Shown in pieces: positions 8,561-52,060 of a stretch of DNA of 64,000 nucleotides. This DNA is from an uncultured Gammaproteobacteria bacterium (GTDB lineage Bacteria > Patescibacteriota > Patescibacteriia > Magasanikbacterales > UBA922): positions 45,039 through 109,038 of the forward strand of contig CAZTEU010000005.1 of assembly GCA_964612105.1 (NCBI GenBank). The letters run 5' to 3'. The notes under the pieces are model-generated. The model searched no databases. It saw only the letters and a list, made by a program, of their open reading frames with translations, and was not told where the DNA came from. Both the position numbers and the translations under genes were made by a program. The first letter of the stretch is position 1. Every line of letters begins with the position of its first letter.

Positions 8561-8590
8561 AAAAAAAGCGCTATGCGCTTTTTTTAATAC
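8561..8590. terminator. rho-independent terminator (AAAAAAAGCGCTATGCGCTTTTTTT)
   Basis: Stem AAGCGC/GCGCTT with flanking A/T runs. Confidence 0.75.
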
Positions 8591-8679
8591 TAGACAAAAA
8601 GGTATGGGAGCGAACGAATCTTGTTTCTACGCCCCCTCAACCCCGCCCCAGATGGGACTAGTGTGGGACGGCGAGGCTA

Positions 8680-8916
8680 CTAACCCCTACTCGTGGTGTT
8701 GCTGTTCCAGACGAGGTCGAAGACCAGCGCCAGGAATAGGCTCATCGTGCAGATGCAGAACAGCACGATGCCGGTGTCGAACATCATGTGCTCGAAACCG
8801 TTCAGCCTGATACCATTGCAGCTGATGGCTGCACTTCGGTACATCGCGGATGCACCACCCACGATGAACAGAACTATGCAACCGATGAAGCAAGAACCAA
8901 ACAGCTTCCAGAACAT
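8680..8916 (-). CDS. small membrane protein (78 aa), island A gene 1
   Basis: Two hydrophobic helices; AAGGAGGGGAAA immediately upstream of ATG (rc of 8917-8932). Confidence 0.6.
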   Translation of the reverse strand: MFWKLFGSCFIGCIVLFIVGGASAMYRSAAISCNGIRLNGFEHMMFDTGIVLFCICTMSLFLALVFDLVWNSNTTSRG

Positions 8917-8990
8917 TTTCCCCTCCTTGAGGAATAGGTAACCTTACGGTCACCAGCGATAAGTACGTTCGCTCAACCTTTCTATCTAGT

Positions 8991-9040
8991 ATAGATTGTA
9001 AAGAGTTTTTGTTTTACCAAACAAAGAAGTGACGGGAGTG
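8991..9040 (+). repeat. intergenic repeat copy 1 (TTGTAAAGAGTTTTTGTTTT ... AAGAAGTGACGGGAGTGAA)
   Basis: Near-identical 20-mer plus related purine-rich 19-mer also at 9576-9628; third inverted partial copy at 9955-9975. Confidence 0.7.
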
Positions 9041-9084
9041 AATTGGATTCAGACTCGCCACCTCGCAGGCTCCTTCTCCTGCGA

Positions 9085-9498
9085 TCAGCGACGGCCCGTG
9101 TGTTGCTCGTCTGCGATCGTCGCCACCCCGGCGAACAGGATAGCGACACTGATGAGCCCAAGGATGGCCCACACCGTCGCCTCTGGATTCAGCACCATCT
9201 GGGCGCTGAATATTCCGCCGTACATGACGGCGGTGAAAACCATCCCAGCGAAGCTCGCCAACCAGACGAACATCCCCGTAACCAGGATTACCATCCCATC
9301 CCAGCGGGAGAAGGTCGACAGGTTGCAGATGCAACCCAAACCAGCCGCCACGAAGATGAAGGCGCCGATCAACAGCGCCAATGTCGCGAACTCGAGGAGG
9401 AACGGCAGGGTGAACACCCAGCCGAACACCTTCATGGCCACGCCCATGATGGTCGCGACTAGAGCCAAACTGACCGTCGGGATATCAAAGAAACGCAT
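9085..9498 (-). CDS. polytopic small membrane protein (137 aa), island A gene 2
   Basis: Four hydrophobic segments; CAAGGAGGAGAAAATG upstream. Confidence 0.6.
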   Translation of the reverse strand: MRFFDIPTVSLALVATIMGVAMKVFGWVFTLPFLLEFATLALLIGAFIFVAAGLGCICNLSTFSRWDGMVILVTGMFVWLASFAGMVFTAVMYGGIFSAQMVLNPEATVWAILGLISVAILFAGVATIADEQHTGRR

Positions 9499-9575
9499 TT
9501 TCTCCTCCTTGCTCGTCTACTGACGAGCTGTAGGCGTTTCGTCCAAAATTCACTCCACTTCTTTATTTGGTATAA

Positions 9576-9628
9576 GTTGTAAAGAGTTTTTGTTTTTCTA
9601 CTAAACAAGAAAGCGAGGAGGTGAACAT
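9576..9628 (+). repeat. intergenic repeat copy 2 (TTGTAAAGAGTTTTTGTTTTT ... AGAAAGCGAGGAGGTGAA)
   Basis: See copy 1. Confidence 0.7.
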
Positions 9629-9683
9629 AGTACGTTACAACCCCTCGCTGGAAACTGCTCCACAGGAAAAGGGTTGAAAGATC

Positions 9684-9920
9684 TCACTCGACGTCGTTGC
9701 ACACCGAGCGCACGGGCTCCTCATCGCTGTACCAGCCGAGGGGGGCTGCATAAACGACGAGGCCACCGATGCTCCCGAGGGAGGCCAGGGACAGACCCAG
9801 AATGGCCGTCTCCACCCGCCCCGCATCAGGGACGAGGAACAGGCCGGTGGCGAAGAGCCCCAGACCCACGAGGAGGAGGATGAAGAAACAGTGGGAATCA
9901 CGATCACGGCGACTACGCAT
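9684..9920 (-). CDS. small membrane protein (78 aa), island A gene 3
   Basis: Two hydrophobic helices; GGAG 8 nt upstream of ATG; TG-extended -10 promoter at 10027-10040. Confidence 0.5.
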   Translation of the reverse strand: MRSRRDRDSHCFFILLLVGLGLFATGLFLVPDAGRVETAILGLSLASLGSIGGLVVYAAPLGWYSDEEPVRSVCNDVE

Positions 9921-9954
9921 GGCAAACTCCAGCCTAGGTTACTTGAACGACGAT

Positions 9955-9975
9955 GTGTCGGACTTGTTCACCTCG
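9955..9975 (-). repeat. inverted partial repeat copy 3 (rc: AAGAAAGCGAGGTGAACA)
   Basis: Reverse complement matches purine-rich half of copy 2; lies about 40 nt upstream of island A gene 3. Confidence 0.6.
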
Positions 9976-10026
9976 CTTTCTTACTTAGTATATTTTAAGG
10001 TACTACTATCCTATTTTACCAACACA

Positions 10027-10040
10027 GTATTATAGCACAA
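10027..10040 (-). promoter_or_regulatory. TG-extended -10 promoter (TTGTGCTATAAT) pointing into island A
   Basis: Identical 13-mer to 2700-2713 and 38317-38330. Confidence 0.5.
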
Positions 10041-10042
10041 AA

Positions 10043-10070
10043 AACCCCTTTTGTCAAGGGGTTTTTATGG
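10043..10070. terminator. bidirectional terminator AAAAACCCCTTTTGTCAAGGGGTTTTT
   Basis: 10-bp perfect stem, loop TTGTC; related hairpin at 21637-21665. Confidence 0.8.
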
Positions 10071-10102
10071 TTTTTTGGCTTATTTTAGCTAAATTGTATA
10101 CT

Positions 10103-11485: not shown

Positions 11486-11590
11486 ATAATTTTGTTGAAA
11501 AATAAGCGGATTTAGTATATAGTACGAGTATCTCATACGCAAGTTTCAGAGAGTTTTTATGTACAAAATCTATAAATAAGATATAGGATT

Positions 11591-14134: not shown

Positions 14135-14135
14135 T

Positions 14136-16206: not shown

Positions 16207-16215
16207 ATAAAAAAT

Positions 16216-17451: not shown

Positions 17452-17453
17452 AT

Positions 17454-18092: not shown

Positions 18093-18094
18093 TT

Positions 18095-19834: not shown

Positions 19835-19889
19835 CGGATACATGTAATAATATAGGAACCTGTCGTGAGACAGGTTTTAATATACAAAT

Positions 19890-21224
19890 ATGACAAAAGA
19901 AACAATAATCTTCGTGTGCTCTAACTGCGACGCTCAATTCCAGAAATGGACTGGACAATGCTTCGAATGTGGTAAATGGGGTACAGTAGAAAACAAGACA
20001 GCAATCACAGATAACAAATCTGGAGACAGTAAAGTTATTGGTGTAGGTGTAAACACACAAAAGCTAGGTGAAATAAAAAATGTAGATTCTTTTAGGAACT
20101 CCTCAAAAATTGGAGAACTAGATCGTGTTCTTGGTGGTGGAATAGTACCAGGTAGTTTAATACTTCTTGGAGGAGAGCCTGGTATTGGAAAATCCACTCT
20201 TTCTTTGCAAATTGCAAACAATATGAAAAAGTCACTATACATTTCTGGAGAAGAATCAATAAATCAGATTAAGATGAGAGCAGACAGACTTGGTAATGCA
20301 AATGCAGATATGTTAGTTATGCATGAGAATGATATAGAAAATATATGCGCAACAATAAAAAAAGAGTCTCCGGAGATTGTAATAATAGACTCAATACAAA
20401 CAATGATATCCAATGACACAAGTGGAGAGCCTGGAAATGTAAATCAGGTGCGTGTGTGTGCAACAAAGCTTTTGGATTCTGCTAAGCAAAGTAAGAGTGC
20501 TATAGTTATTATTGGTCATGTTACAAAAGATGGTTCTGTTGCTGGACCAAAGACTCTGGAACATCTAGTAGATACTGTTTTGTACATTGAGGGAGATAGG
20601 TACTACCAAACAAGACTTTTGAGAACAATAAAAAATAGGTTTGGCTCTACAGATGAAGTAGGTGTCTTTGAAATGAACGAACTCGGTCTTAAGGAAGTAA
20701 AAAACCCATCATCTGCTTTCTTAGAAGAGCGTGCAGATGATACGCCTGGCAGTGTTGTTACTTGTCTTATAGAAGGCACTCGCCCACTACTAATTGAGGT
20801 GCAGGCATTAGTAAATAAAACTAGTTTTGGATATCCTGTACGCAAAGCAAGCGGTTTCGATCTAAATAGATTACATGTACTTGTAGCTGTACTACAAAAA
20901 AGAGCAGGACTGCAGTTAGGTCAGTATGATATCCATGTAAATGTAGTTGGAGGATTAAAAGCACAAGAGCCGGCTGCAGACTTAGCAGTATGTCTTGCTA
21001 TAGCAAGCTCTTTTAAGGACAAGGTACTTGGTGGAGATTTGGTAGTTTTTGGAGAAGTTGGATTAGGTGGAGAAGTAAGAAGAGTAAATCAGTCTCAAAA
21101 AAGAATAAAAGAGTGTGAGAAACTTGGTATGCAACGAGTAGTAACTTCCAAAAACCCAGGTAATGTTCATGGAACAAAGATTATAGAAGTAAAGAATATA
21201 GCAGAACTAATCCAGAAAACATAA
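19890..21224 (+). CDS. radA: DNA repair protein RadA (Sms)
   Basis: N-terminal C4 zinc finger (CSNCDAQFQKWTGQCFECGKWG), RecA-like Walker A GEPGIGKST, KNRFG motif, Lon-like C-terminus. Confidence 0.95.
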   Translation: MTKETIIFVCSNCDAQFQKWTGQCFECGKWGTVENKTAITDNKSGDSKVIGVGVNTQKLGEIKNVDSFRNSSKIGELDRVLGGGIVPGSLILLGGEPGIGKSTLSLQIANNMKKSLYISGEESINQIKMRADRLGNANADMLVMHENDIENICATIKKESPEIVIIDSIQTMISNDTSGEPGNVNQVRVCATKLLDSAKQSKSAIVIIGHVTKDGSVAGPKTLEHLVDTVLYIEGDRYYQTRLLRTIKNRFGSTDEVGVFEMNELGLKEVKNPSSAFLEERADDTPGSVVTCLIEGTRPLLIEVQALVNKTSFGYPVRKASGFDLNRLHVLVAVLQKRAGLQLGQYDIHVNVVGGLKAQEPAADLAVCLAIASSFKDKVLGGDLVVFGEVGLGGEVRRVNQSQKRIKECEKLGMQRVVTSKNPGNVHGTKIIEVKNIAELIQKT

Positions 21225-21244
21225 AACCACCTTGTGGGTGGAAT

Positions 21245-21610
21245 ATTGACCGCCGACCCGCCCGAACCACTCAGAAGCAAGCTTCTTTGTGATCCGGACA
21301 GGTCAGACGTGTGAGACTGGTTGAGAACTACACCATACCAACGTGGGCATTGGAGATTCCGATGGAACCCCTGATGATCTGGCCAGACGCTGTGAGGTTG
21401 TAGTTGGAACAGGCACGAACATACCCGCGGTAATTCTCACGGTCATCTTCCGTGCGATTACCGCTCAGAATCCACCTCGCGTAGTCCTGAGGGATTCTGT
21501 GCTCAACACGGAGCCTGGCAACAATCTGTCGCCCCTGTGAAAATTCGCTCTGATGGACACTCATGCTCTCTTTCCTCCTGTTTAGGGGTATTTACCCCTA
21601 AGAAATTGAA
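21245..21610. other. GC-rich micro-island B
   Basis: 60-nt sample 21251-21310 counts 36/60 G+C versus 20/60 in adjacent recG 3' end; flanked by hairpins CCACCTTGTGGGTGG and AGGGGTATTTACCCCT. Confidence 0.7.
21328..21564 (-). CDS. hypothetical 78-aa protein, island B
   Basis: CAGGAGGAAAGAGAGCATG upstream; no recognised domain. Confidence 0.5.
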   Translation of the reverse strand: MSVHQSEFSQGRQIVARLRVEHRIPQDYARWILSGNRTEDDRENYRGYVRACSNYNLTASGQIIRGSIGISNAHVGMV

Positions 21611-21636
21611 TTCGTCAAAAACTATATACTAAAATA

Positions 21637-21665
21637 TCCCTTTTGTCAAGGGATACTTTTTATTC
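21637..21665. terminator. terminator hairpin ATCCCTTTTGTCAAGGGAT + T-run
   Basis: Shares CCCTTTTGTCAAGGG core with 10043-10070. Confidence 0.7.
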
Positions 21666-23726: not shown

Positions 23727-23794
23727 ACTGAGTTATTGTACGGGATTTTTGTAATAAAAACAAAAAAACACCATTTTGGGTGTTTCTGGTCCGC

Positions 23795-24100
23795 TGGCTC
23801 GACCACTACTCCGTAGAGTGTGGCCAAGCCAGAGGACATGTTCTACCTCTCCTTCTGTGAACGTACAAACCGTCGTCGTGCTTTCGCAACGATTTCGGAA
23901 ATACGCATGAGTTCCTTGAGTCGACTGAGATCAACCCTGTTCGCTTGCCTTTTCGGTGTTTCAACCTTACCCAGGTATGAAACACCTGGACGATCAAAAC
24001 GAGTCTCTCCGTATGGTCCCCCCATGACTGGCCTCCTGATTGTGCTTCGTTTCTATGGGTTTTTATATCACTGTAGGACATGTCTGTCAATTTAAAAACA
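23795..24100. other. GC-rich micro-island C
   Basis: G+C-rich segment between two AAAAACACC...GGTGTTTT hairpins. Confidence 0.65.
23843..24025 (-). CDS. hypothetical highly basic 60-aa protein, island C
   Basis: AGGAGG 6 nt upstream of ATG; overlapping antisense ORFs lack RBS. Confidence 0.45.
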   Translation of the reverse strand: MGGPYGETRFDRPGVSYLGKVETPKRQANRVDLSRLKELMRISEIVAKARRRFVRSQKER

Positions 24101-24210: not shown

Positions 24211-24282
24211 GTGCTCCCGACAGGAATCGAACCTATACCGATGGCTCCGCAAGCCACTGTTCTATCCATTAAACTACGGGAG
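24211..24282 (-). tRNA. tRNA-Arg (anticodon GCG by manual fold)
   Basis: rc folds as cloverleaf: acceptor GCTCCCG/CGGGAGC, anticodon stem GTGGC/GCCAT, loop TTGCGGA, T-loop TTCGATT; 72 nt, no encoded CCA. Confidence 0.8.
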
Positions 24283-24338
24283 CTTGATTGTTATCAACGC
24301 GAAAATTATATACCAAAAAACAGGTAGTGTCAACCTGT

Positions 24339-26333: not shown

Positions 26334-26334
26334 T

Positions 26335-28282: not shown

Positions 28283-29161
28283 ATGACAATATCAAAGGAG
28301 GGGCTCGTTGCTTTTTATAGCAAAATAACTTATGGGCGATACTGTCAGATACAAAAAAACTTCTCCTCTTTTGAGGAGTTTTGGGGTGCTAGTCCTGACG
28401 AATTATTCTTGCGTCTTAGGTGGAAAGAAGATTTGATTTCTCACTTCTGCTCTTGGCGAAAAGATTTAGAGTACAATAAAATAGAAGAGTTAATGCAAGA
28501 ACAAGAAATGTATCTGGTTTTAATGGATGATAAGGACTATCCCCCACTACTAAAAGAGATACATAGCCCACCTATTGCACTTTTTGTTCGTGGAACATTG
28601 GAAAACATAAGAAAACCATTAGCTGTTGTTGGTACAAGGAAATGTTCTACGTACGGAAAACAGATTACAAGGACACTTGTGAGTGAACTAGCAAAAGAAG
28701 GAATCAGTATTATTAGCGGTCTAGCATATGGGATAGACGCAAGTGCTCATTATGCAACCCTACAAGCAAGTGGTAATACAATTGCTGTTCTGGGATCTGG
28801 ATGTGATGAAAACACAATAACCCCAGCCCCACATAGAAAACTAGCACAACAGATAGTAGAATCTGGAGGGGCTGTTATATCTGAGTACCCACCAGGTACT
28901 CATCCTACTAAATATTCTTTTCCAGAGAGAAACAGAATTATATCTGGAATTAGTATAGGGACACTTGTTATTGAGGCTCCTGAAAAATCTGGAGCATTAA
29001 TTACTTCTGATTTTGCACTTAACCAAAACCGAGAGGTCTTTGCTGTACCTCATAATATAACAAATATAAACGGGGCTGGTACAAATGAATTAATTAAAAA
29101 AGGTTCTCACGTTGTAACAAACTCAAGAGATATATTACATGTTTTTGAATCTAATCCATGA
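28283..29161 (+). CDS. dprA: DNA processing protein DprA (Smf)
   Basis: Rossmann-like LAVVGTRKCSTYG...SGLAYGIDASAH. Confidence 0.9.
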   Translation: MTISKEGLVAFYSKITYGRYCQIQKNFSSFEEFWGASPDELFLRLRWKEDLISHFCSWRKDLEYNKIEELMQEQEMYLVLMDDKDYPPLLKEIHSPPIALFVRGTLENIRKPLAVVGTRKCSTYGKQITRTLVSELAKEGISIISGLAYGIDASAHYATLQASGNTIAVLGSGCDENTITPAPHRKLAQQIVESGGAVISEYPPGTHPTKYSFPERNRIISGISIGTLVIEAPEKSGALITSDFALNQNREVFAVPHNITNINGAGTNELIKKGSHVVTNSRDILHVFESNP

Positions 29162-33569: not shown

Positions 33570-33600
33570 ATCATGTACACAAAAGCCCCCATAAACTGGG
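33570..33600. terminator. terminator AAAAGCCCCCATAAACTGGGGGCGTTT
   Basis: 6-bp GC stem after topA stop. Confidence 0.7.
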
Positions 33601-33869
33601 GGCGTTTGTGTAGCGGAGAGGAGGTAACCTCAATGCCTGTGGTAATATAAAGGCCCTCAACCCGCTACAAAATACAGGATATCAGAAAAAAGGAGAAAAT
33701 ACAAGAAAAAGAAAAGTCCCGAATAATTTCGGGATTTTTCTCGGCCTTGGGATTACCCTACCTCTATATTACCTACGGACAATTATAGCAATAAAATATA
33801 GATTTGTCAAGTAGGAGTGTAAATAAATCGGAAAAATAAAAAATCATCCTTTTTTAGGATGAATCGTTT

Positions 33870-35060
33870 CACCCTGCCCAGCGTTTCTTGCTGAGCAGGG
33901 TGTGCCTCCTTTTTTGGTAAGGTCATGAGAGACCGAGTGTCCGAGGAACCAAGTTCCACTACCCGAGAGCCAAGGAACCTAGCATCCTAGGGCTGACGCT
34001 TGCTACGGACGAGAAAACGAGAGCGGTCACCCCAGCCGCCGTCAAACCAGCGGAGATAAGTTAAGAGGTGCTGACCGTTGCCGTCGCTCCAGACACACGG
34101 GCAGCCCCGGTCACCGTTCAGGTCCTGCCAGACGCTTCCGAGCGCGACCAGTGGCCATTCCAGACCGACTTCTTGATGTTCGGCGCAGTATACGAGCAAA
34201 TCGCGCAACGAGGCGACCTCGTAGCCTTGTTTCTTGATCTCATCCAGCACTGCTGTGGTGTGCAAACGCTTGTTGAAATGCAAAACCTCGAGACTGTACT
34301 CGTAGTCAGGCTGGTCATCCGGAAGGGGGAAATTCTCGGTAGTGATGTTATATTCGACGTAACCGAACCCACATGCCCCAATGAGCTGTTGTAATTCATC
34401 CGGAGAGGTCTCTTCATCAGAAACGGTCTTCTTACGACGGACCAGGAAACGGTAGTAGTTGATCCACCTGCTCTCAAGCCAGTCGAAATCCAGACGCCGA
34501 CCGTTTCTATCACGCCAGACAAACGGACAACACTGGCCACCGTGCACATTCTGCCAAGTACTCCCGAGTGCGGACAATGGCCAGTCCAGGCCGACTTTGG
34601 AATGTTCGGCGCAGTATACGAGCAAATCGCGCAACGAGGCGACCTCGTAGCCCTGCTTCTTGATCTCATCCAGCACTTCCGTGGTGGTCAGACCCTTGTT
34701 GAGGTGCAGAACCTCGAGACTGTACTCGTAGTCAGGCTGGTCATCCTCGAGCGGGAATTTCTCGCCCATGATGTTATCATCCACTGAGTGGAACTTGCAT
34801 GCTCCAATGAGCTGTTGCAGTTCGTCCGAGATAGGCACTTCGACCAGCTTGTCGAACCGCCCTTCCACAATCGCTTGGAGCGCTTTTTTGACCAGAGCTG
34901 GGTCGTACGGGCACCCCCTCTTCTGCCGAAGCAACCTCTTGATCTCGTGGAGCTGACCATCAATCTCGAAATACAGATCGCCTGCAACGCTAAACGCCAT
35001 GACAATCTCCTCTTTTCTAAGCTACAAATGCCAACGCACTCGCGCCAACACTCTTGCCTG
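33870..35060. other. GC-rich micro-island D
   Basis: Sharp compositional shift; single long minus-strand ORF with RBS, multiple overlapping antisense ORFs typical of high-GC DNA. Confidence 0.7.
33987..35000 (-). CDS. hypothetical 337-aa protein built from two tandem ~150-aa repeats (unrecognised domain), island D
   Basis: AAGAGGAGA upstream of ATG; internal repeat SDELQQLIGAC.F...DDQPDYEYSLEVLH.NK..TT.VLDEIKKQGYEVASLRDLLVYCAEH..VGL.WPL.ALGS.WQ....G..CP.VW.D.NG present twice. Confidence 0.6.
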   Translation of the reverse strand: MAFSVAGDLYFEIDGQLHEIKRLLRQKRGCPYDPALVKKALQAIVEGRFDKLVEVPISDELQQLIGACKFHSVDDNIMGEKFPLEDDQPDYEYSLEVLHLNKGLTTTEVLDEIKKQGYEVASLRDLLVYCAEHSKVGLDWPLSALGSTWQNVHGGQCCPFVWRDRNGRRLDFDWLESRWINYYRFLVRRKKTVSDEETSPDELQQLIGACGFGYVEYNITTENFPLPDDQPDYEYSLEVLHFNKRLHTTAVLDEIKKQGYEVASLRDLLVYCAEHQEVGLEWPLVALGSVWQDLNGDRGCPCVWSDGNGQHLLTYLRWFDGGWGDRSRFLVRSKRQP

Positions 35061-35157
35061 TTTTGGAACTGGATAAAGCATACCAAAATATCACTATATG
35101 TCAAGTATGGTGCTAGAACTTGCCAAAATAGTAAAAAATGGTTAAAGTAAATGGGCT

Positions 35158-37529: not shown

Positions 37530-37530
37530 A

Positions 37531-38307
37531 TTAATATATTGATGTAGTGTGAATATCTAAAACTTCTCTTGCAAGACGCTCGTATGCTTTTGCCCCCCTG
37601 CTTCTAGGGTCATAATGAAAAATACTTTGTCCAAAGCTTGGGGCTTCTGCAAGTCTTACAGTCCTTGGGATTACAGAACGAAATATTGTATTTGGAAAAA
37701 ACCTATACAACTCCCCCATTACATCATCTGCTAACTTTGTGCGCTTATCAAACATTGTTATCACTGCTCCAAGTACAGATAATTCCGGTTTTAGGTGAGT
37801 TTGTACGAGCTGTATTGTCTGTAATAACTGCCCTAGTCCTTCCAAAGCATAATATTCCGCCTGTACAGGAATGAGTAGCTCATCTGCTGCCACAAGCGCA
37901 TTCACAGTCAACAATCCAAGTGATGGAGGGCAATCGATAATAATATAATCATACGCATGACGTACCTCTTCCAATATGTCTGATAACTGGTGCTCTCGTC
38001 TCTCCATTCCAACTAATTCTATATTTGCTCCAGCTAGATGATGGTTACATGGGATAATTCTTAAACCTTCGTGTGCTGTATTGTGTACTACATCATGTAT
38101 TCTTTTCTGTCGTGCCATTGCTTCATAGAGACTGTTGTCTAGCTCATTTCTTTGTATCCCATATCCACTAGATGCATTACCTTGAGGATCCATATCTACC
38201 AATAAGACAAAACGGCCACTCTCAGCAAGTGCGGCAGCCAGATTCATTGAAGTTGTCGTTTTCCCCACTCCACCTTTTTGGTTCACTACGGCGATAATTT
38301 TGCTCAT
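37531..38307 (-). CDS. parA: chromosome partitioning ATPase ParA/Soj
   Basis: Deviant Walker A KGGVGKTTTSMNLAAALAE. Confidence 0.9.
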   Translation of the reverse strand: MSKIIAVVNQKGGVGKTTTSMNLAAALAESGRFVLLVDMDPQGNASSGYGIQRNELDNSLYEAMARQKRIHDVVHNTAHEGLRIIPCNHHLAGANIELVGMERREHQLSDILEEVRHAYDYIIIDCPPSLGLLTVNALVAADELLIPVQAEYYALEGLGQLLQTIQLVQTHLKPELSVLGAVITMFDKRTKLADDVMGELYRFFPNTIFRSVIPRTVRLAEAPSFGQSIFHYDPRSRGAKAYERLAREVLDIHTTSIY

Positions 38308-38316
38308 ATTTACGCG

Positions 38317-38330: not shown

Positions 38331-38374
38331 ATTGACAAAGGAGCTACTCTAGAATATAATTATCAACACCGCAT

Positions 38375-38456
38375 GCCCGAGTGGCGGAACTGGTAGACGC
38401 GCACGACTCAAAATCGTGTTCCTTCGGGAGTGAGAGTTCGAGTCTCTCCTCGGGCA
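38375..38456 (+). tRNA. tRNA-Leu (anticodon CAA), type II with long variable arm
   Basis: GCCCGAG...CTCGGGC acceptor, anticodon loop CTCAAAA, T-loop TTCGAGT; followed by terminator. Confidence 0.9.
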
Positions 38457-38490
38457 CAAAAAAAACACCCTTGTTTGGGGTGTTTTATAT
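38457..38490. terminator. terminator AAAAAAAACACCCTTGTTTGGGGTGTTTT
   Basis: Member of recurring AAAAACACC...GGTGTTTT hairpin family. Confidence 0.75.
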
Positions 38491-38985: not shown

Positions 38986-38986
38986 A

Positions 38987-40533: not shown

Positions 40534-40534
40534 G

Positions 40535-42930: not shown

Positions 42931-42934
42931 AATA

Positions 42935-43231: not shown

Positions 43232-43436
43232 ATTTTTGGCTTAGTTGAGCTAAATTTCTATTGTAATTATATCATAATTCTGCTTGTAATATCAAGGAAT
43301 AGTCAAGTTGACAGGCATACTTTTTTGTGCAACAATGAAAAAACCAGCGTCGTTATGGCGGGGTCATCCCAATGCGGGATTAGGGTGTCTTCTTCTTCCA
43401 CACCAACAAAGGAAGATTTTTCAAGGAGGTGTCGTT

Positions 43437-43799
43437 ATGGCATCTAGACAGTATGAGTTTTTGGACAAGACCGGAGAGACTTGGTACCACATCGTAGAAG
43501 GTATGTGTCCCGGCATTTGGGACCTGATTATCAACTCACTTGTGCGCGGTAACCAGTGCACTGTGATAATCTACACCCAAAGCCAAGCCTCTGGACAAAG
43601 ACTGGGCATCGAGCTGACACACCTGAAGAGTGTCACCAACCTCACGTCGTACGTCGACAAAGAGTGCGAAGAGTGGGCACTCGTTGCAACAACCCCGTGG
43701 AACTGGGTAACCGTGCGGTTCAACACCAAGACGCGACATGGACGCCTCCGGTTCCTGACGAAAGAGGAAGAGAGGGTGTGCACCACGCTCATGGAGTAG
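43437..43799 (+). CDS. hypothetical 120-aa protein, island E (start at MASRQYEF after AAGGAGG)
   Basis: CAAGGAGGTGTCGTTATG; ORF track's longer 43308 start lacks RBS. Confidence 0.5.
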   Translation: MASRQYEFLDKTGETWYHIVEGMCPGIWDLIINSLVRGNQCTVIIYTQSQASGQRLGIELTHLKSVTNLTSYVDKECEEWALVATTPWNWVTVRFNTKTRHGRLRFLTKEEERVCTTLME

Positions 43800-43821
43800 A
43801 GGTAACCCCACACAGACGACA

Positions 43822-43862
43822 AGACCCCCGTTCCTGCAAGGTTCGGGGGTCAATTCTTTTTT
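43822..43862. terminator. terminator GACCCCCGTTCCTGCAAGGTTCGGGGGTC + TTTTTT
   Basis: 8-bp GC stem. Confidence 0.75.
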
Positions 43863-43868
43863 ATAAGA

Positions 43869-45641
43869 TTATTTCTTTTTCTCTTTTCTTTTCTCTAAAC
43901 CTAACTCTTCCAACTGTTCTTTGTCTACCTCTGCAGGACTTCCCATCATTGGTTCTTCTGCTTTCTGGTTTTTAGGGAATGGCACAACAGAACGGATATT
44001 GTTTTCTCCAAGTAGTAACATTGCCAATCTTTCTATTCCAGGTGCAAAACCGCAATGAGGAGGTGCTCCATATTCAAAAGCATCTATCATGTGTCCAAAC
44101 TTTTTGTCTACATCATCTTTGGAATAACCTGCAATTTCAAAAGCTTTGTACATAATCTCCGGATCCTTGTTTCGTACAGCTCCAGATGATAATTCTAATC
44201 CGTTTGCAATAATATCATACTGATAACCCAGTATATCCAATGGGTCTTTATTTTCTAGCGCCTCCATTCCACCTTGTGGCATAGAGAATGGATTATGACT
44301 AAAGTCTATCTTGCCTGTTTCTTTGTCTTTTTCATACATTGGAAAATCTACAATCCAAGCCCACGCAATCATGTTTGGATCTGCTAGTTCCATGTTCTTT
44401 CCAACAAGATGACGAACAGCACCTAGTGCTTCACAACTCACCTTCCAACTGTCTGCAACAAAAAACACAATACTCCCCTCCTCTGGTTCTAATCTTTCTT
44501 GTAAGTCATTTAATGCTACGCCTGTAAAGAGTTTCTTAATTGGTCCACTAAATCCACCATGCTCGAATTTCATCCAAGCAAGACCTTTTGCATGATTTCG
44601 CTTTGCTACATCTTCATATTCATCAGTTATATCTTTTCTAGAAAATGAAGCTCCACCTGGAACATACAATGCTTTTATACTCTCTGCTTCTTTAAAAATA
44701 TTAAAATCTGTTGCATTTCCCCAGTCTGTAAGATCTATTAGTTCCAAATCGTAACGCAAGTCTGGACGATCTGAACCATATCTGTCCATTATTTCTGTAA
44801 ATGCTAACCGAGGTATTTTTTTATCTTTTAATTTCTTTTTAGCAACCTTCGTTGTAAGTTCTATAAAAAGAGGTTCCATTAAATCGAAAAACTCATCCTG
44901 TGTCATAAAGCTTACTTCACAATCTAGCTGATAAAACTCTCCTGGCGAACGGTCTGCTCGCGGATCTTCGTCTCTCATACAAGGCGCAATCTGATAATAT
45001 TTATCAAAACCTGCAACCATTAGTAATTGCTTGTATTGTTGAGGCGCCTGAGGCAGAGCATAAAATTTTCCTGGATGAATTCTACTTGGAACCAAAAAAT
45101 CTCTAGCACCTTCTGGAGAGCTCACTGTAAGAAGAGGTGTGGCAATATTTATGAAATCATTCTTTTCCATATAATTGCGAATATGCTTTTCCATTTTCGA
45201 TCGAAACAATACGTTATTCTTCAACTTCTCACGTCGCAATTCAAGGAAACGATACTTTAGACGCAACTCCTCTTCCTCTTCACCCTTACCAGAGTCGAAA
45301 ATCTCAAACGGCATTGTTTTTGCCTCACTTAAAATCTCTAGCTCGCTAGCTAAAACTTCAATCTCTCCTGTTTTTAATTTTTTATTTACTGTTTTTGAAT
45401 CTCTTTTTACAACCTTTCCAGTAATTTTTATTATAAATTCATATTTTAAAGTCTCTGCCAAACCAAAGTCTGATACTTTGTCAGGATTAAATACAACCTG
45501 AGTAATTCCATAGCGATCTCTTAAATCAACAAAAATAAGACCACCTAGGTCTCTGCGCTTATGCACCCATCCGGCCAAAGAAACCTCTTTGCCTGTGTTT
45601 TTTTTGCTTAATTCTGCGCAATTGTGAGTTCTATATGACAT
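43869..45641 (-). CDS. aspS: aspartate--tRNA ligase (bacterial type with GAD insertion)
   Basis: 590 aa, anticodon-binding OB fold N-terminus, class II motifs, FRDE/GGSIR-type region. Confidence 0.9.
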   Translation of the reverse strand: MSYRTHNCAELSKKNTGKEVSLAGWVHKRRDLGGLIFVDLRDRYGITQVVFNPDKVSDFGLAETLKYEFIIKITGKVVKRDSKTVNKKLKTGEIEVLASELEILSEAKTMPFEIFDSGKGEEEEELRLKYRFLELRREKLKNNVLFRSKMEKHIRNYMEKNDFINIATPLLTVSSPEGARDFLVPSRIHPGKFYALPQAPQQYKQLLMVAGFDKYYQIAPCMRDEDPRADRSPGEFYQLDCEVSFMTQDEFFDLMEPLFIELTTKVAKKKLKDKKIPRLAFTEIMDRYGSDRPDLRYDLELIDLTDWGNATDFNIFKEAESIKALYVPGGASFSRKDITDEYEDVAKRNHAKGLAWMKFEHGGFSGPIKKLFTGVALNDLQERLEPEEGSIVFFVADSWKVSCEALGAVRHLVGKNMELADPNMIAWAWIVDFPMYEKDKETGKIDFSHNPFSMPQGGMEALENKDPLDILGYQYDIIANGLELSSGAVRNKDPEIMYKAFEIAGYSKDDVDKKFGHMIDAFEYGAPPHCGFAPGIERLAMLLLGENNIRSVVPFPKNQKAEEPMMGSPAEVDKEQLEELGLEKRKEKKK

Positions 45642-45738
45642 ATTTTAATATACCTACGAATAGCATTATTTTACCAATAATACAGGGCAAATGCAAGAAC
45701 CCAGCATTCTTATAGCTTTGTGATATAATATATCTATT

Positions 45739-46749
45739 ATGAGGCTATTTCTTGCTATAACTACCATTTTTGCTGTCATTGCGGCAGCTATTTTTGTTGT
45801 TTTCAAATTTGGAAATATTGAGAGTTACGTAGTAGAAATTCCTCCAGCAGTACAACAAGAGCAAGAAGTGGTTAAAAAAGAAAAACTACCTGTAGCAGTA
45901 AAAAGACCAGTCAAACAACCAGAACCACCAATTATTGAGCCTGTGGTTCCAGAAACGAAAGCAGAACTAGTAGAAATACCAGAAAAAGAGGTGGTAAAAA
46001 AGATTGAAGAAGTCGCTAAAATTTCAATCCCAGAAAAAGAAACTAACGCTCCCACTCCAATTGTATATAAAATTGTAAAAGCAGGCTCAAGCTCTTTTCT
46101 TTCTTATGATGGAGTTTTCACCCTGACAAACAGTCATAGAGCACAAAATGGACACGGACCACTTGAGCATAACTCTCTTTTGGACAGCGCGGCACAAATG
46201 AAACTGCAGGACATGTTTGATCAACAATATTTTGCACATGTAGGACCAGACGGAAAAGAACCTTCCACATGGGTAAACGCAGCTGGATACAATTACAAAA
46301 CAACAGGGGAAAATCTTGCACAGGGAAATTTTGAAACAGATGCAGTTTTGGTTCAAGGGTGGATGGACAGCCCTGGACATCGTGCAAACATATTAAACAC
46401 AACTTTTACTCAAATAGGAATTGCTGTTGGCAAAGGCATGTTCGAGGGTCAAGAAACATGGTTGGCAGTACAGGTTTTTGGTAAACCAATGCCAATTTGT
46501 GACCAGCCCGAGCAAGTATTAAAAGATCAAATAGAAGCAGAGAATGTAAAAATAGATCAAACGCAACAAAAAATAAATGGTCTACAAAACGAAATCGACT
46601 CCACTTCTGACGTGGAACTACATAATCAAAAAGTAGATGAATATAATGCGCTTATTCCAATATTCAACGATCTAATTGAAAAAACAAAAGCGCTGACAAG
46701 TAAATTCAACGCTCAAGTTAATGTTTATAATCTATGTATTGATCAGTAA
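45739..46749 (+). CDS. CAP/SCP/PR1-like domain protein with N-terminal TM and C-terminal coiled coil
   Basis: CAP signature HRAQNG...GENLAQG...GW.DSPGHRANIL. Confidence 0.7.
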   Translation: MRLFLAITTIFAVIAAAIFVVFKFGNIESYVVEIPPAVQQEQEVVKKEKLPVAVKRPVKQPEPPIIEPVVPETKAELVEIPEKEVVKKIEEVAKISIPEKETNAPTPIVYKIVKAGSSSFLSYDGVFTLTNSHRAQNGHGPLEHNSLLDSAAQMKLQDMFDQQYFAHVGPDGKEPSTWVNAAGYNYKTTGENLAQGNFETDAVLVQGWMDSPGHRANILNTTFTQIGIAVGKGMFEGQETWLAVQVFGKPMPICDQPEQVLKDQIEAENVKIDQTQQKINGLQNEIDSTSDVELHNQKVDEYNALIPIFNDLIEKTKALTSKFNAQVNVYNLCIDQ

Positions 46750-47493: not shown

Positions 47494-47496
47494 ATA

Positions 47497-48789: not shown

Positions 48790-48819
48790 AACGGTTTAAT
48801 ACTAGCTTATAATTATATA

Positions 48820-49554
48820 TTAGGCAAGACGACTAATACGACCCCAATCTGGAATGTGTCTCTCATGATAGAATCGCACAAACGAATATATACAGCTGTG
48901 AACTATATAATACTGTTGAGGGGTGAGATTTAGGCGCATTGCTATATCTGGTTTGTTTACAAGAATCTTTAATACCTTTTGTGCTCCCGGACCACACGGC
49001 AATATTTTTTCTCCTCTAGATATTTCTCCACCACGACAGTTAGAACAAATAACTCCCCCTCCAGAAATAATGAAGCCGTGTAACTTTTTCTTTTCTAAAC
49101 ACATCACACAGTGATCTAAAGTTGGACATAATCCAAAGTGCGAATATAGTTGCAATACAAACGTATCTAAATTAACAACTTTTGGTTTTTTACTCTGAGC
49201 CAACTCTTTTAGCCACGCAATCAAGAAGTCATACACAAAAGGATCTGGTGCGTTAGTCTCCAAGAGCCTGTTTACAATTACTAGTGCGTAAGATGCTAAT
49301 AATCTTTTCTTTAAATCTTTCTGAATCAACAAAAAACTTTCCACTGGGATCGCTCTTGTAAGATGGTCTACTCGCTTACCTGGAATAATATCCACATTTG
49401 CTATACGACACTGACCTAAACAAGAAGAGTTTTTACTTGTAATTTTTTTTATTCCACGAGCAAGAACATGGCGTTTGCCATGCTCCTTTGTAATTAGGGT
49501 TATCATTTGATCTGACTCACGAATATCGTAACGTGCAAGTACAAGAGCGTGCAT
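48820..49554 (-). CDS. recO: DNA repair protein RecO
   Basis: OB fold N-terminus, C4 zinc motif CVMC...CSNC. Confidence 0.85.
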   Translation of the reverse strand: MHALVLARYDIRESDQMITLITKEHGKRHVLARGIKKITSKNSSCLGQCRIANVDIIPGKRVDHLTRAIPVESFLLIQKDLKKRLLASYALVIVNRLLETNAPDPFVYDFLIAWLKELAQSKKPKVVNLDTFVLQLYSHFGLCPTLDHCVMCLEKKKLHGFIISGGGVICSNCRGGEISRGEKILPCGPGAQKVLKILVNKPDIAMRLNLTPQQYYIVHSCIYSFVRFYHERHIPDWGRISRLA

Positions 49555-49555
49555 A

Positions 49556-49939
49556 TTATTTTTTCAAGTAACTCTGTAAGATTACCATAGCAGATTTTTC
49601 ATCGCGAGTAGCCTCCCCTCCCATTTCATCTGCTTCAGCAGAGCTAAACCTTTCATCTACAAACTCAACAGGAATATCTATGTCTTTTTTTAGCTCTTCT
49701 ACAAAAGCACGGACTCGCTTTGTGTTTTCGTTTTCTTCAACATCACTGTCTGCACTAATTGGTAAACCTACCACTAACTTGTCCGCTCTTTCTTCTTTTA
49801 TTAAATTAACAAGTTGCTCATGTCGGGATTCACCTGGTTTTTCTTCTACCACACCATACGGTAAAACAACTCCAAGTTCTTTTTGCACCCATGCTAACCC
49901 AATCTTTTTTGTACCAAAATCTATTGCAAGTATATTCAT
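49556..49939 (-). CDS. ruvX: Holliday-junction resolvase-like YqgF/RuvX
   Basis: MNILAIDFGTKKIGLA signature. Confidence 0.9.
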   Translation of the reverse strand: MNILAIDFGTKKIGLAWVQKELGVVLPYGVVEEKPGESRHEQLVNLIKEERADKLVVGLPISADSDVEENENTKRVRAFVEELKKDIDIPVEFVDERFSSAEADEMGGEATRDEKSAMVILQSYLKK

Positions 49940-49940
49940 A

Positions 49941-51458
49941 TTATTTTAGGAATACGTCTATGTTAACTATCCCACTCTTTTCATCCTCCTCAGTAAATTT
50001 CTTGTTTATACTTTTCTTTTCTAAACCATCTTTCTCCACAACAAGAGTAAAATCCCCGACAGCTACAGGCAAAAAATATCTACCAAACATATCTGTAACT
50101 GTGTATGCTATTCTTTTCTCATACGGTTTCTTAAACAAAGACACCACGGCCCCAGATATTGCTTTGTTATCTTTCGTGTATATCTTTCCAAATTTCTTAC
50201 GTTTATCTTTTCTTGTAAGTCTGAGGAATATAATTAAGAGTACAACGTGCACAGCAACAAGTACCCATACCCACCATGAACGAACAAAGAGTAAGGCCAG
50301 AGCAGAAAGGAATGGCGCAATATAACCAACTGTACGACCAATTCTCCTTTGCCATTTTTTTAACTTAAACCTACCAACGCTCGGCTTACCTTCATCTGGA
50401 TCTAAAGGAACTTGTTTGTCTATAACCACTTCCTTATTCTTAACATCCACACTTCCTCCTAAATAATTCTCTGGATTATCTTTTCCAAATACAGACGGAA
50501 AGGAAAAGCTTTGTTTACTTGCCTCTAACTCATACACTCCCGGAGGAGTAAGGAATAAGTAGTTTCCATTCTTGCCTGTAACAGCACTTTTAATAACTTT
50601 CTTTGTATTAGAATCTATAAGCCTTACAGAACTTAGGTCTAATGGATTTTTTGTAATGGAATTAAATACTGTTCCCCAAGTCTTATACTTTCTTCTCCTT
50701 AATAACAGCAATGGTTGTGCAAGTACAAATTGACCAAACAGTATGGTTGTATGTATGCCACTTGCAAAAGGAATGTTTAACACAGCTAGCCCCGCAATGA
50801 CAGGGGCTGTCTTTTTAATGACACACTGTTCTACGTATGAGTAGTCTTTTTCTGTTGGGTTTGTTATTAAGGTTGTAATGTCTGCAACATTATTAACTTC
50901 TAAAGATTCTTTTGCACAGTCTATAACAACTGCTGTCTTACCATACGTATTTGCAAGACTTTCTAAACCAACAGATCCAAAACAATTAGAAATTTCATTC
51001 TGCACCTCTGCGCTTATAGCCCCAGAAAGATTATATGTATTGTTTAGTCTTTCTATACATTCACCCACCTCTTTTGACTGCTCATTTGTAATATTACTTA
51101 AATCTGAATACTGAGCAGAAAGCGTGTCCTTTAGTACAGGTAATTCCCAAACTTTGTTTAATGATTGCTCTTCATAGCACGCAGATAACTCTTTCTGATA
51201 CTCCTGATACAACCTACCCTGACTACAATCTGCCAGTAGTACTATGTATTCTGGATTAGAGGTATCATCCGCATACTTATCATTTACTCCAGCTATACAC
51301 TCCTGCGAAGAGGCGCTGTATTCTTCTGTTACACGCTTAATACAATCTGCAGATGCCTGCTGTCCATCATTCTGTGCATGTACCACACCAAAAGACACAA
51401 AAAAAGAGCCAAAAAGGACAGCAAACAGTAAAAGAGATGTTTTGATGTGTTGTCTCAT
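49941..51458 (-). CDS. hypothetical secreted Cys-rich protein with TM and C-terminal transthyretin/CarboxypepD_reg-like beta domain
   Basis: Signal peptide; Cys-rich N-domain; GKNGNYLF...PGVYEL beta-sandwich-like motif. Confidence 0.45.
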   Translation of the reverse strand: MRQHIKTSLLLFAVLFGSFFVSFGVVHAQNDGQQASADCIKRVTEEYSASSQECIAGVNDKYADDTSNPEYIVLLADCSQGRLYQEYQKELSACYEEQSLNKVWELPVLKDTLSAQYSDLSNITNEQSKEVGECIERLNNTYNLSGAISAEVQNEISNCFGSVGLESLANTYGKTAVVIDCAKESLEVNNVADITTLITNPTEKDYSYVEQCVIKKTAPVIAGLAVLNIPFASGIHTTILFGQFVLAQPLLLLRRRKYKTWGTVFNSITKNPLDLSSVRLIDSNTKKVIKSAVTGKNGNYLFLTPPGVYELEASKQSFSFPSVFGKDNPENYLGGSVDVKNKEVVIDKQVPLDPDEGKPSVGRFKLKKWQRRIGRTVGYIAPFLSALALLFVRSWWVWVLVAVHVVLLIIFLRLTRKDKRKKFGKIYTKDNKAISGAVVSLFKKPYEKRIAYTVTDMFGRYFLPVAVGDFTLVVEKDGLEKKSINKKFTEEDEKSGIVNIDVFLK

Positions 51459-51489
51459 AATGGATGTAGTTTAGCAGAATGAGAGTAAA

Positions 51490-52060
51490 TAGCAAAACAA
51501 AAAAACACCATATTAGTGTTCTTTTGAATTGGGCCGAGATTTTGTATAGGTACTCGGCCGTTTAACCTATGTTGTCGTACTCCCCTTACTCGGTAGGCAT
51601 CTCGACATCGCTGACGTCGACACCTAGAGCCAAGGCGCATACTTGGTAGTCCGCGACGCGATTCTGGTAGATCGACCCTCCAACGCATCGCACGAAGCGC
51701 GTAACGAAGTCCTTGAACCCGTGGTCCAGGTCCATGGCAGTACAGATGATGTGAGATGCCGCATACCTGAAGTCTTCGTCGACCATACCATACATGAAGT
51801 TCTGCAGGGCACTCTCGCAGAGTCCACCACACAGTGAGTCAGCCAGAGGGATGTCCTTCCAGGCGATGTAGGTACGGTTATTGTAGCCACGTTCCTCGTG
51901 AAAGAGTGTTTCATATGAGACCCCCTTCTCTTGAATCGCCGCTTTATTGAGGAGCCAAACCTTCAGACACTTGCTGACCTGGGCTTGCAGATACTGATTC
52001 ATTTCCATCTCCTTGTAAAGAGCCTCTATTTTGTCCTCCACCACGCCTTTTTGTGATTTC
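51490..52060. other. GC-rich micro-island F
   Basis: Compositional shift bounded by hairpins (AACACCATATTAGTGTT, GGCCGAG...CTCGGCC). Confidence 0.65.
51586..52002 (-). CDS. hypothetical 138-aa Cys-containing protein, island F (start at MNQYLQ after AAGGAG)
   Basis: CAAGGAGATGGAAATG; ORF track GTG start further upstream lacks RBS. Confidence 0.5.
   Translation of the reverse strand: MNQYLQAQVSKCLKVWLLNKAAIQEKGVSYETLFHEERGYNNRTYIAWKDIPLADSLCGGLCESALQNFMYGMVDEDFRYAASHIICTAMDLDHGFKDFVTRFVRCVGGSIYQNRVADYQVCALALGVDVSDVEMPTE

Follow-up and report, generated by a model that had tools for sequence, protein, structure and literature searches.

Short G+C-rich islands in an AT-rich Magasanikbacteria genome are candidate imported gene cassettes that lack a recombinase

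The window analysed here is a 64-kb stretch of DNA (64,000 nt; positions 45,039 to 109,038 of contig CAZTEU010000005.1, assembly GCA_964612105.1) from an uncultured bacterium placed in the Magasanikbacterales of the Patescibacteriota, and between its AT-rich native genes it carries six short islands (A to F) that are far richer in G+C and hold eight credible open reading frames (ORFs; A1, A2, A3, B, C, D, E and F). The reading that we favour, with moderate confidence, is that these islands are imported, self-contained cassettes of orphan genes that come without a recombinase, resemble phage morons or the minimal mobile elements (MMEs) of Neisseria, and derive from a gene pool of ca. 55% G+C that uses Shine-Dalgarno (SD) sequences.

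The window as a whole has 37.8% G+C, and a scan in 200-nt windows with a threshold of 0.48 found six extended G+C-rich segments (8551-10000, 21201-21600, 23751-24050, 33851-35100, 43351-43900 and 51501-52000; each 49-55% G+C), outside of which a single isolated window at 14901 is barely at 0.48. Together, the islands make up ca. 6% of the window. An earlier sequence-only reading of this DNA had described the same six blocks as compositionally foreign, and our analysis recovers their coordinates and shows them to deviate in G+C, third-position G+C (GC3), CpG, codon, amino acid and SD use. Its sample count of 36/60 G+C at 21251-21310 is exact, while the 20/60 given for comparison was not reproduced (the radA 3' end counts 17/60) although the contrast itself stands; likewise, island B does not simply adjoin the recG 3' end but has the radA 3' end on its other side, and the proposed total of about ten island ORFs shrinks to eight.

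The GC3 of 58 native ORFs is 0.260 +/- 0.040, a value that seven of the eight island ORFs exceed by more than 9 standard deviations and ORF C by ca. 4 (Table 1). Because the G+C excess falls mainly on the third codon positions of the proposed frames, the island ORFs are genuine coding frames. Codon choice shifts alongside, with CTG and CTC providing 77% of leucine codons in islands vs 10% in native genes and ATC 74% vs 7% of isoleucine codons, and so does amino acid usage (cysteine 2.8% vs 0.6%, lysine 3.4% vs 8.7%). The observed/expected ratio of CpG is 0.94 in islands and 0.53 in the strongly CpG-depleted native DNA, which is a signature independent of G+C content. The G+C shift also spans the leaders and 3' untranslated regions, i.e., the transcript, and the ribosomal-protein genes show no island-type codon shift (GC3 0.15-0.29). 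Pooled over 13 island coding sequences of this genome, inside the window and beyond it, the G+C content at codon positions 1/2/3 is 56.9/41.7/63.3, close to the 58.0/40.1/69.6 of genes on a 56.5% G+C contig that we discuss below (L094; L-numbers denote retrieved loci or contigs). The codon-position profile of the island genes is internally consistent with that of an ordinary genome of 49-56% G+C.

A second contrast concerns translation initiation. An SD sequence, defined as GGAGG, AGGAG or GAGGAG 5-10 nt upstream of ATG, precedes 7/8 island ORFs vs 1/58 native ORFs (Fisher p = 8e-8) and is absent from all genes of the ribosomal-protein operon. The sequence-only reading had assigned SDs to every island ORF and to none of the native genes that it checked, which holds with one exception on either side: A3 carries only CTGGAG, and one native gene passes the test. 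It had also reported native starts close to TG-extended -10 boxes, and by a strict test (TGnTAnnnT ending 5-13 nt ahead of the start codon) we find this arrangement at 5/58 native genes. Native genes that start 6-10 nt past such a box (e.g., 37531-38307, 45739-46749 and topA) would be consistent with leaderless mRNAs. Whether the SDs function in this organism depends on the 3' end of its 16S rRNA, which was not found in any fetched locus; an anti-SD motif has been reported in only 48% of Parcubacteria (PMC9297842).

As far as can be predicted from sequence, each block is a complete transcription unit (Table 1). A near-consensus promoter is followed by a 40-100 nt leader of intermediate G+C content, an SD, the ORF (with TAG as stop codon in 5/8 cases), a G+C-rich hairpin and, finally, an AT-richer terminator hairpin with a T run. 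A strict promoter search across the 64 kb (TTGACA, 16-18 nt spacer, TAnnnT) returned ten sites, of which four belong to islands A, B, D and F, two to tRNA genes, three to native genes and one lies at 33810(-); the promoters of islands C and E miss this pattern by one position. Promoters of islands A, B, D, E and F score 10-12/12 against the consensus, and the one of island C was read by eye. Island and tRNA promoters also rank at the top of a generic promoter scanner, the total count of which was no higher than in shuffled sequences. All blocks lie between native genes, as had been claimed before, and end at a hairpin: terminator-like hairpins close units B to F in our scans, and the last hairpin of island A (8561-8585, GCGC-TAT-GCGC plus T7) is below scan length and was read by eye. 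Integrases and transposases, the absence of which had been stated by the sequence-only reading, as well as tyrosine recombinases and reverse transcriptases, were missing from our family and Pfam tables for the genes of the window, which cover the majority of native ORFs.

The sites of islands C, D and E are empty in relatives or, for C and D, differently filled. The topA-relA gap that holds island D measures 1590 nt here and only 43-167 AT-rich nt in six loci (L014, L017, L029, L030, L037 and L056), and in L078 it houses an unrelated, G+C-rich and SD-led gene for a 247-aa protein with a TauE-like N-terminus. Similarly, the g98-aspS gap with island E spans 638 nt here vs 54-57 nt in L018 and L021, while the tRNA-Arg(GCG)-recG site occupied by island C is empty in L081 and carries an unrelated, SD-led, G+C-rich and Cys-rich ORF of ca. 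78 aa in L014. The sequence-only reading had proposed to look for empty gaps in siblings, which these three sites indeed show, and had viewed the same sequences at the same loci as a sign against foreign inserts; we found no homologue of the eight island proteins when 80 loci of relatives were searched. The units that relatives do carry repeat the same layout: a terminator or a tRNA gene is followed by a consensus promoter, and this in turn by leader, SD, an orphan ORF rich in G+C, hairpin and terminator, mostly with cargo that has no Pfam match. When one uniform gene-picking rule was applied to 45 loci, SDs were found at 11/34 GC3-high genes vs 48/765 other genes (p = 1e-5), and at least one GC3-high gene was present in 19/45 loci. 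The genome studied here carries at least five further G+C-rich, SD-led units in 16 kb outside the window (Table 1), indicating that islands occur genome-wide at a rate of roughly one per 5-10 kb.

Independent assemblies confirm that the islands belong where they were found. In exact-protein look-ups of D, E and ribosomal protein uL14 (the flank of which covers island F), 21-24 contigs each, of up to 390 kb and from many samples in JGI, ENA and Logan, were read, and all places shown have the same neighbouring genes around islands D, E and F. Since these independent assemblies reproduce the junctions around D, E and F, the islands are not chimeras. These three islands are fixed in the population, being present in every contig retrieved of it, and look-ups of g98 and uL14 aimed at island-less strains returned only the same near-clonal population. 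A strain that is 98.2-98.7% identical (L095) carries island D with exactly one 426-nt repeat fewer. Best matches of RelA are 56-77% identical and come from metagenome-assembled genomes labelled Candidatus Magasanikbacteria or Patescibacteria (nearest GTDB species representative 77%), the gene order folC-topA-relA-parB is conserved across the group, and a metagenome scan with ClpC found only relatives at <=52% identity and none at intermediate distance. The suggestion that an actinobacterial host might be the donor finds no support, given that this Candidatus Magasanikbacteria lineage has no known actinobacterial host and nothing points to Actinobacteria.

We envision that each block was horizontally acquired as a single-gene expression cassette with a promoter of the sigma-70 type and came to lie in an intergenic gap of an otherwise syntenic chromosome, with island A representing three of them in tandem. 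The source pool would have a codon-position profile of ca. 50-56% G+C and SD-led translation and would probably correspond to accessory, defence or mobile genes of other bacteria. Incoming DNA, possibly taken up with the help of DprA (PF02481; encoded in the window at 28283-29161), might insert by illegitimate recombination or recombination in homologous flanks at permissive sites behind terminators, beside tRNA genes and between convergent genes. The resident RNA polymerase would then transcribe the cassettes from promoters as good as those of its tRNA genes, and the predicted products are small membrane proteins (A1 to A3), small soluble or basic proteins (B, C, E and F) and a tandem lectin-fold protein (D), i.e., apparently accessory genes of the type found in defence or mobile regions.

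Several known systems are similar in part. Phage morons as described by Hendrix and colleagues are single extra genes with their own promoter and terminator and a deviant G+C content that implies horizontal transfer (reviewed in PMC3594210). The islands resemble them as predicted independent transcription units of a composition unlike that of their neighbours that are absent between the same neighbours in relatives (at sites D, E and C). However, morons reside in phages or prophages, whereas the islands are flanked by housekeeping genes (topA/relA, radA/recG, aspS, pgm-like) and not by phage genes, and there was no significant PHROG match and no match to phages or IMG/VR. Islands further differ from morons by deviating upward, by ca. 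16 G+C points in an AT-rich host, and by a concomitant switch of the translation initiation signal. The MMEs of Neisseria (Saunders and Snyder 2002; Snyder 2007), following the definition in PMC3082526, share with the islands that whole-gene cassettes without mobility genes of their own lie between two conserved genes and differ or are absent depending on the genome. The topA-relA site (island D, the unrelated gene of L078, or empty in six loci) and the tRNA-Arg-recG site (island C, the unrelated ORF of L014, or empty in L081) behave in this way between species, not strains, and the dprA gene suggests that the host probably takes up DNA. Unlike MMEs, which vary among strains of one species and are exchanged through homologous flanks, the islands vary between species of ca. 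75% protein identity, and the population itself is monomorphic.

Other comparisons reach less far. With integron gene cassettes and attC clusters that lack an integrase, the islands share short, mostly orphan cargo of heterogeneous composition, and island A is an array with related, partly palindromic junctions. An integron cassette normally has no promoter and carries at its end an attC site that IntI recognises, whereas every island has a strong predicted promoter and IntI was not seen in the tables for the window; by eye, the junctions of island A have no RYYYAAC/GTTRRRY cores, and pairing spans the cistron rather than one junction. Island A alone is also reminiscent of mobile insertion cassettes, miniature inverted-repeat transposable elements (MITEs) and the Correia elements (CREE) of Neisseria in that it has passengers between terminal inverted repeats and promoter-like sequence in its junctions; transcribed inverted repeats of CREE are RNase III substrates (PMC2649163). 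These repeats (26-29 bp) are found in A1 to A3 and not in islands B to F, and since their arms differ by compensatory changes, island A offers no common transposase-binding sequence. A related insertion sequence element, a transposase and a target duplication were not seen, and the junction core is confined to island A. Classical genomic islands, with many kilobases, an integrase and att repeats beside a tRNA gene, differ from these blocks of 0.3-1.5 kb, which have no integrase and of which only island C adjoins a tRNA gene. For Patescibacteria, horizontal transfer, both of genomic islands and of individual genes, has been reported at up to 13% of a genome, with competence as the proposed route (PMC12455944). 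Our observations agree with this in the horizontal acquisition by streamlined genomes of the candidate phyla radiation (CPR), while sub-kilobase single-gene units with their own promoters and the contrast between SD-led and SD-less genes are not described there.

The promoters of islands recur as portable modules. Islands A and B, like both paralogues of D outside the window, have at their upstream edge a 15-nt hairpin, CCCTTGACAAAAGGG, that was not found elsewhere in the 64 kb; the hairpin holds the -35 box in its loop, as in island A, and its T run acts as spacer. Among relatives, a 33-nt promoter, TCTTGACAACTCTCTCTCTCTTTGCTATAAT, stands in identical form ahead of apparently unrelated G+C-rich, SD-led ORFs at different loci of L033, L036 and L041, though the core-gene DNA of L036 and L041 (the pair compared) is merely 62-73% identical. 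In L033, this promoter with its CT-repeat spacer precedes an ORF for a 44-aa hydrophobic peptide. Island promoters resemble the tRNA promoters of the genome by a T-tract and a TGn-extended -10 box. As these modules recur at islands only, promoters were probably carried by the units and not captured, so that the earlier idea of promoter-captured cassettes survives with regard to the cassette, with its own promoter and terminator, and not with regard to capture.

Scans of the eight island proteins with Pfam, PHROGs and PADLOC found nothing significant. Protein D, by contrast to the orphans E and F, has relatives at 35-49% identity: among 5.8e9 clusters, it matched itself, the one-repeat allele of L095 (195 aa; L095 1895-2482), a paralogue (P0003) and two outside proteins. 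The G+C-rich, SD-led P0003 gene lies between uvrD and ndk elsewhere in the same genome, and a third paralogue is located upstream of tuf (L134 1987-2511). One outside relative (P0004) is present in two copies beside type I restriction-modification and cyclic-oligonucleotide-based antiphage signalling system (CBASS) genes on the 56.5% G+C contig L094, where both copies repeat the island layout in a G+C-rich setting, each with a separate TTGACA promoter, a long leader that is structured and includes a conserved hairpin, and an AGGAGG site; among the D relatives with readable context, it is the only one outside Magasanikbacteria-type contigs. The leader hairpin of ca. 60 nt (GAGACGAGCGC...GCGCTCGTCTC; 7885-7945 and 8928-8990) matches nothing in Rfam and is a possible regulatory RNA element. 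With a dN/dS of 0.37 between its repeats, D is under protein-level constraint. The 426-nt repeats (34070-34795) are 80% identical overall and near-identical over the central ca. 170 nt, which suggests gene conversion. Mutagenesis by a diversity-generating retroelement, prompted by the lectin fold, was discarded because mismatches between repeats are not adenine-specific, and a profile of the D family had no match among PDB sequences. An AlphaFold model of F (pLDDT 41) was unusable. Other islands of the genome encode a divergent GCS2-family ligase behind a 28-codon ORF as well as further orphans.

Island A stands apart as an array of three mutually unrelated ORFs separated by related junctions (Table 1). 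The ends of each cistron unit can pair with each other, with duplex energies of -36.8 (A1), -37.3 (A2) and -37.2 kcal/mol (A3) vs -15 to -23 kcal/mol for cross-unit duplexes (e.g., for A1 with the 3' ends of the other units -15.2 and -23.3 and with their 5' ends -18.3 and -18.0 kcal/mol), and the end-closing helix is part of the minimum-energy fold of each unit. The A1 helix extends to 8617 and from 8966, both by eye and in the fold. As the arms covary between units, it is pairing and not sequence that is conserved. The 19-nt junction core, AAACAAAAACTCTTTACAA, has exactly two copies in the window, both in island A (chance expectation 0.12), the first of which lies inside a 48-nt direct repeat (8968-9015 and 9549-9596, 81% identical). 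Island A might be transcribed as one precursor from the promoter at 10057, with the helices serving as RNase III-type processing or stabilising structures. Two related ideas were rejected: as local hairpins, the junctions fold no better than shuffled sequences (z -0.4 to -1.5), and 5'-3' end closure in islands B to F has no own-unit specificity. The native neighbour of island A encodes a 126-aa protein that an exact-protein look-up did not find on record.

Table 1. Predicted features of islands A to F (window coordinates) and of related units and promoters in retrieved loci (coordinates of the locus named).
Feature	Position	Strand	Description
Island A, array of three cassettes	8561..10068	-	54% G+C over 8600-10000
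Island A, bidirectional terminator hairpins	8561-8585 and 10040-10066		at both edges
Island A, promoter	10029..10057	-	TTGACA, 17-nt spacer, TGcTATAAT; 12/12 consensus, extended -10
ORF A3	9684..9920	-	78 aa, two hydrophobic segments, GC3 0.77, weak SD CTGGAG
ORF A2	9085..9498	-	137 aa, four or five hydrophobic segments, GC3 0.81, SD AAGGAGGAG
ORF A1	8680..8916	-	78 aa, two hydrophobic segments, GC3 0.77, SD AAGGAGGGG
Cistron unit A1	8585..8994	-	26-bp helix joins own ends; repeat-finder arms 8587-8603 / 8976-8992
Cistron unit A2	9010..9577	-	26-bp end-to-end helix, arms 9012-9044 / 9547-9575
Cistron unit A3	9597..9992	-	29-bp end-to-end helix, arms 9599-9618 / 9971-9990
Junction core, copy 1	8996..9014	-	AAACAAAAACTCTTTACAA
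Junction core, copy 2	9577..9595	-	AAACAAAAACTCTTTACAA
Island B, one unit	21227..21655	-	between 3' ends of radA and recG
Island B, hairpin promoter	-35 21644-21649; -10 ending 21621	-	-35 inside CCCTTGACAAAAGGG; -10 TATAGT
ORF B	21328-21564	-	78 aa, GC3 0.62, SD CAGGAGGAAA
Island B, 3' end	21255-21304; 21227-21241	-	G+C hairpin; terminator
Island C, one unit	23764..24090	-	directly downstream of tRNA-Arg(GCG) 24211-24283 and its terminator
Island C, promoter	TTGACA 24085-24090	-	17-nt spacer, TATAAA
ORF C	23843-24025	-	60 aa, basic, GC3 0.43, SD CAGGAGG
Island C, 3' end	23789-23837; 23764-23787	-	hairpin; terminator
Island D, one unit	33844..35104	-	
Island D, promoter	35077-35104	-	TTGACA, 16-nt spacer, TGgTATGCT
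ORF D	33987-35000	-	337 aa, two tandem C-type-lectin-like-fold domains, GC3 0.67, SD AGAGGAG, 426-nt repeat period
Island D, 3' end	33870-33902; 33844-33862	-	11-bp G+C hairpin; terminator
Island E, one unit	43308..43860	+	100-nt leader
Island E, promoter	43308-43336	+	TTGACA, 17-nt spacer, TGcAACAAT
ORF E	43437-43799	+	120 aa, strict orphan, GC3 0.69, SD CAAGGAGG
Island E, terminator	43830-43850	+	plus T run
Island F, one unit	51498..52099	-	
Island F, promoter	52071-52099	-	TTGACA, 17-nt spacer, TGgTATATT
ORF F	51586-52008	-	140 aa, strict orphan, GC3 0.67, SD AAGGAG
Island F, 3' end	~51533-51560; 51498-51526	-	G+C hairpin; terminator
Outside-window units, same genome	L090 2245-3656, 6001-6948, 7927-8235; L134 715-1200, 1987-2511		
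CT-repeat-spacer core promoter, copies	L033 18932-18962; L036 14890-14921; L041 16680-16711		

A number of smaller observations concern the surroundings of the units. The genes for tRNA-Arg-GCG (24211-24283) and tRNA-Leu-CAA (38375-38457) are island hot spots in one species or another (L024, L025, L027, L028, L014), with islands always situated just past the tRNA terminator and without an integrase or att-like repeat. At the end of another locus, in a relative of 47.5% G+C, a 64.6% G+C block (L052 151-1800) encodes a large serine recombinase with Resolvase, Recombinase and Zn-ribbon domains, so at least some G+C-rich DNA in this clade arrives together with a recombinase. In most units, an ATTC motif (AATTC, CAATTCA or GATTCA) follows a few bases past the G+C-rich 3' hairpin (E 43851-43855, F ~51528-51534, B ~21245-21251, D ~33863-33868, L134 ~1255), a post hoc observation without proper statistics that could be a signature of junctions or of processing. 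Between topA and island D (33600-33830), a TG-extended promoter of 12/12 consensus runs from 33810 to 33782 (-) and is followed ca. 50-60 nt downstream by a terminator-like hairpin (33717-33734(-)) and then by a second terminator (33585-33603). Its predicted transcript may be a small unannotated RNA, which has no Rfam match. On the plus strand of this region, GAGGAGG precedes a 5-codon mini-ORF (ATG at ~33633) within a GTAGCGG...CCGCTAC stem.

The import of cassettes as the origin of the islands faces a series of difficulties that we weigh here together. The proposed insertion mechanism is wholly conjectural, and presence/absence polymorphism within the species was not found for D, E and F in the contigs retrieved. 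Neither did our searches find a donor: F found only itself in a deep HMMER search of 1.84e9 representatives and E only itself in a word-indexed search of 5.8e9 clusters, a tblastn search of phages and plasmids with D was negative, scans of IMG/VR with the D-family alignment, F, E and the CT-spacer promoter revealed no relative, and the GCS2-like protein of another island (L090) returned only itself and no close relative. D is 46-49% identical to its two paralogues with saturated synonymous divergence (dS), all three being G+C-rich, and the three units have a homologous 3' non-coding module in common; paralogues and module could reflect long residence without amelioration. A further objection comes from a homologous island gene behind tRNA-Leu in four species (L024, L025, L027 and L028; 31-66% aa identity), the GC3 of which stays 0.21-0.31 above native even though synonymous sites of relA are saturated; such lasting GC3 would not be expected if an insert acquired once were simply decaying. 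In this family, the closest species pair (RelA 93%) has island proteins of only 34% identity and a more distant pair has 66%, an incongruence better accounted for by replacement from a pool than by clock-like descent. We consider that a reading of the islands as recent inserts is only part of the story: the lasting G+C content of the tRNA-Leu family, the common promoter modules and the helices of island A are left unexplained by it. An apparent tracking of host G+C by island G+C across relatives was set aside as partly an artefact of the detection threshold.

These same observations give some weight to an unlikely but serious alternative in which the islands are an intrinsic, fast-evolving gene class of Magasanikbacteria, the G+C-rich, structured and SD-led mRNAs of which would be kept by selection, e.g., for mRNA stability or because G+C-rich messages might be unable to use AU-rich SD-independent or leaderless initiation, with apparent insertions resulting from differential loss or turnover. 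Such a class would account for the lasting G+C richness of the position-conserved four-species family at saturated dS, for three G+C-rich D paralogues in one genome, for orphan cargo without a donor found, for promoters like those of the genome's own tRNA genes and for a G+C shift that covers leaders and 3' untranslated regions. Moreover, the 11-bp hairpin of the D-family 3' module has six compensatory pairs (in three sequences only) and the island A helices covary likewise, so that pairing at the level of RNA or single strands appears conserved. It fits poorly with the empty orthologous gaps of several siblings and the different, unrelated cargo in the same gap, with a D homologue at home in a 56.5% G+C contig and with the incongruence between family divergence and species distance. 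CpG, codon choice and amino acids furthermore shift jointly as in an ordinary genome of ca. 55% G+C, and ribosomal-protein genes do not take part in the codon shift.

Less probable still is a dedicated, undescribed mobile micro-element with portable end modules, for the movement of which another part of the genome would encode an enzyme (e.g., a transposase, a recombinase acting on hairpins or a reverse transcriptase). The restriction of CCCTTGACAAAAGGG to the edges of islands A and B and both outside D paralogues, the identical 33-nt promoter before unrelated cargo at different loci of three species, the homologous 3' module of three D-family units, and the inverted repeats around each unit of island A with related junctions between unrelated ORFs would all suit such an element. 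Yet its enzymes are among those not seen in the tables for the window. The islands do not all share any one end sequence, flanking repeats are missing from islands B to F, and we saw no duplication of a target site. What units do have in common is precisely the working parts of promoters and terminators, and covariation of the island A arms points to pairing rather than to transposase recognition.

Structured non-coding RNAs, the usual cause of G+C-rich blocks in AT-rich genomes, would come with strong tRNA-like promoters and many hairpins as seen here and would render the ORFs spurious, but this is very improbable in view of a G+C excess that sits at codon position 3, protein-level constraint on D and its homologues, SDs at the right distance ahead of 7/8 ORFs and the lack of any Rfam match of the islands at the gathering threshold or even at E = 1 (only the two tRNAs were matched). 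Assembly chimeras or contaminant inserts, which could produce abrupt changes of composition over short blocks, are effectively refuted by the recurrent neighbours of islands D, E and F in independent assemblies, the coincidence of block boundaries with promoters and terminators, and the clean loss of one repeat from island D in the 98%-identical strain.

Within the literature that we searched, three features seem to be undescribed: the dichotomy of SD-led cassettes and SD-less native genes, promoter modules common to cassettes and species, and lasting G+C richness in a family conserved across species. If the cassettes are imports, gene flow without recombinases feeds accessory genes into episymbiont-type genomes, and these genes probably have roles in the membrane, in defence or in interaction with a host; their composition would then provide a handle on the gene pool of partners and perhaps hosts. 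CPR genomes are tiny and streamlined, yet this window contains orphan cargo behind strong predicted promoters. The SD contrast also raises the question of whether ribosomes of an essentially SD-less lineage can still read SD-led messages and, if so, whether it is SD use that sets the cassette genes apart.

A broader and distinctly tentative proposal is that Magasanikbacteria, and perhaps other Patescibacteria, keep a lineage-wide pool of recombinase-free plug-in cassettes that are SD-led, stay G+C-rich and CpG-normal beyond synonymous saturation, and move between species and loci. In such a plug-in cassette, a portable promoter module may be joined to an orphan ORF that is G+C-rich and SD-led and to a 3' module that is structured. 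If this is true, the cassettes would be the only genes of these genomes that initiate with SDs and would represent, instead of ordinary decaying imports, either an accessory compartment that is regulated or translated separately or a mobile element of a new kind, to which island A would add a new mRNA architecture with a long-range helix of ca. 27 bp per cistron. If confirmed, lasting G+C richness together with common promoter modules would challenge the standard picture of amelioration.

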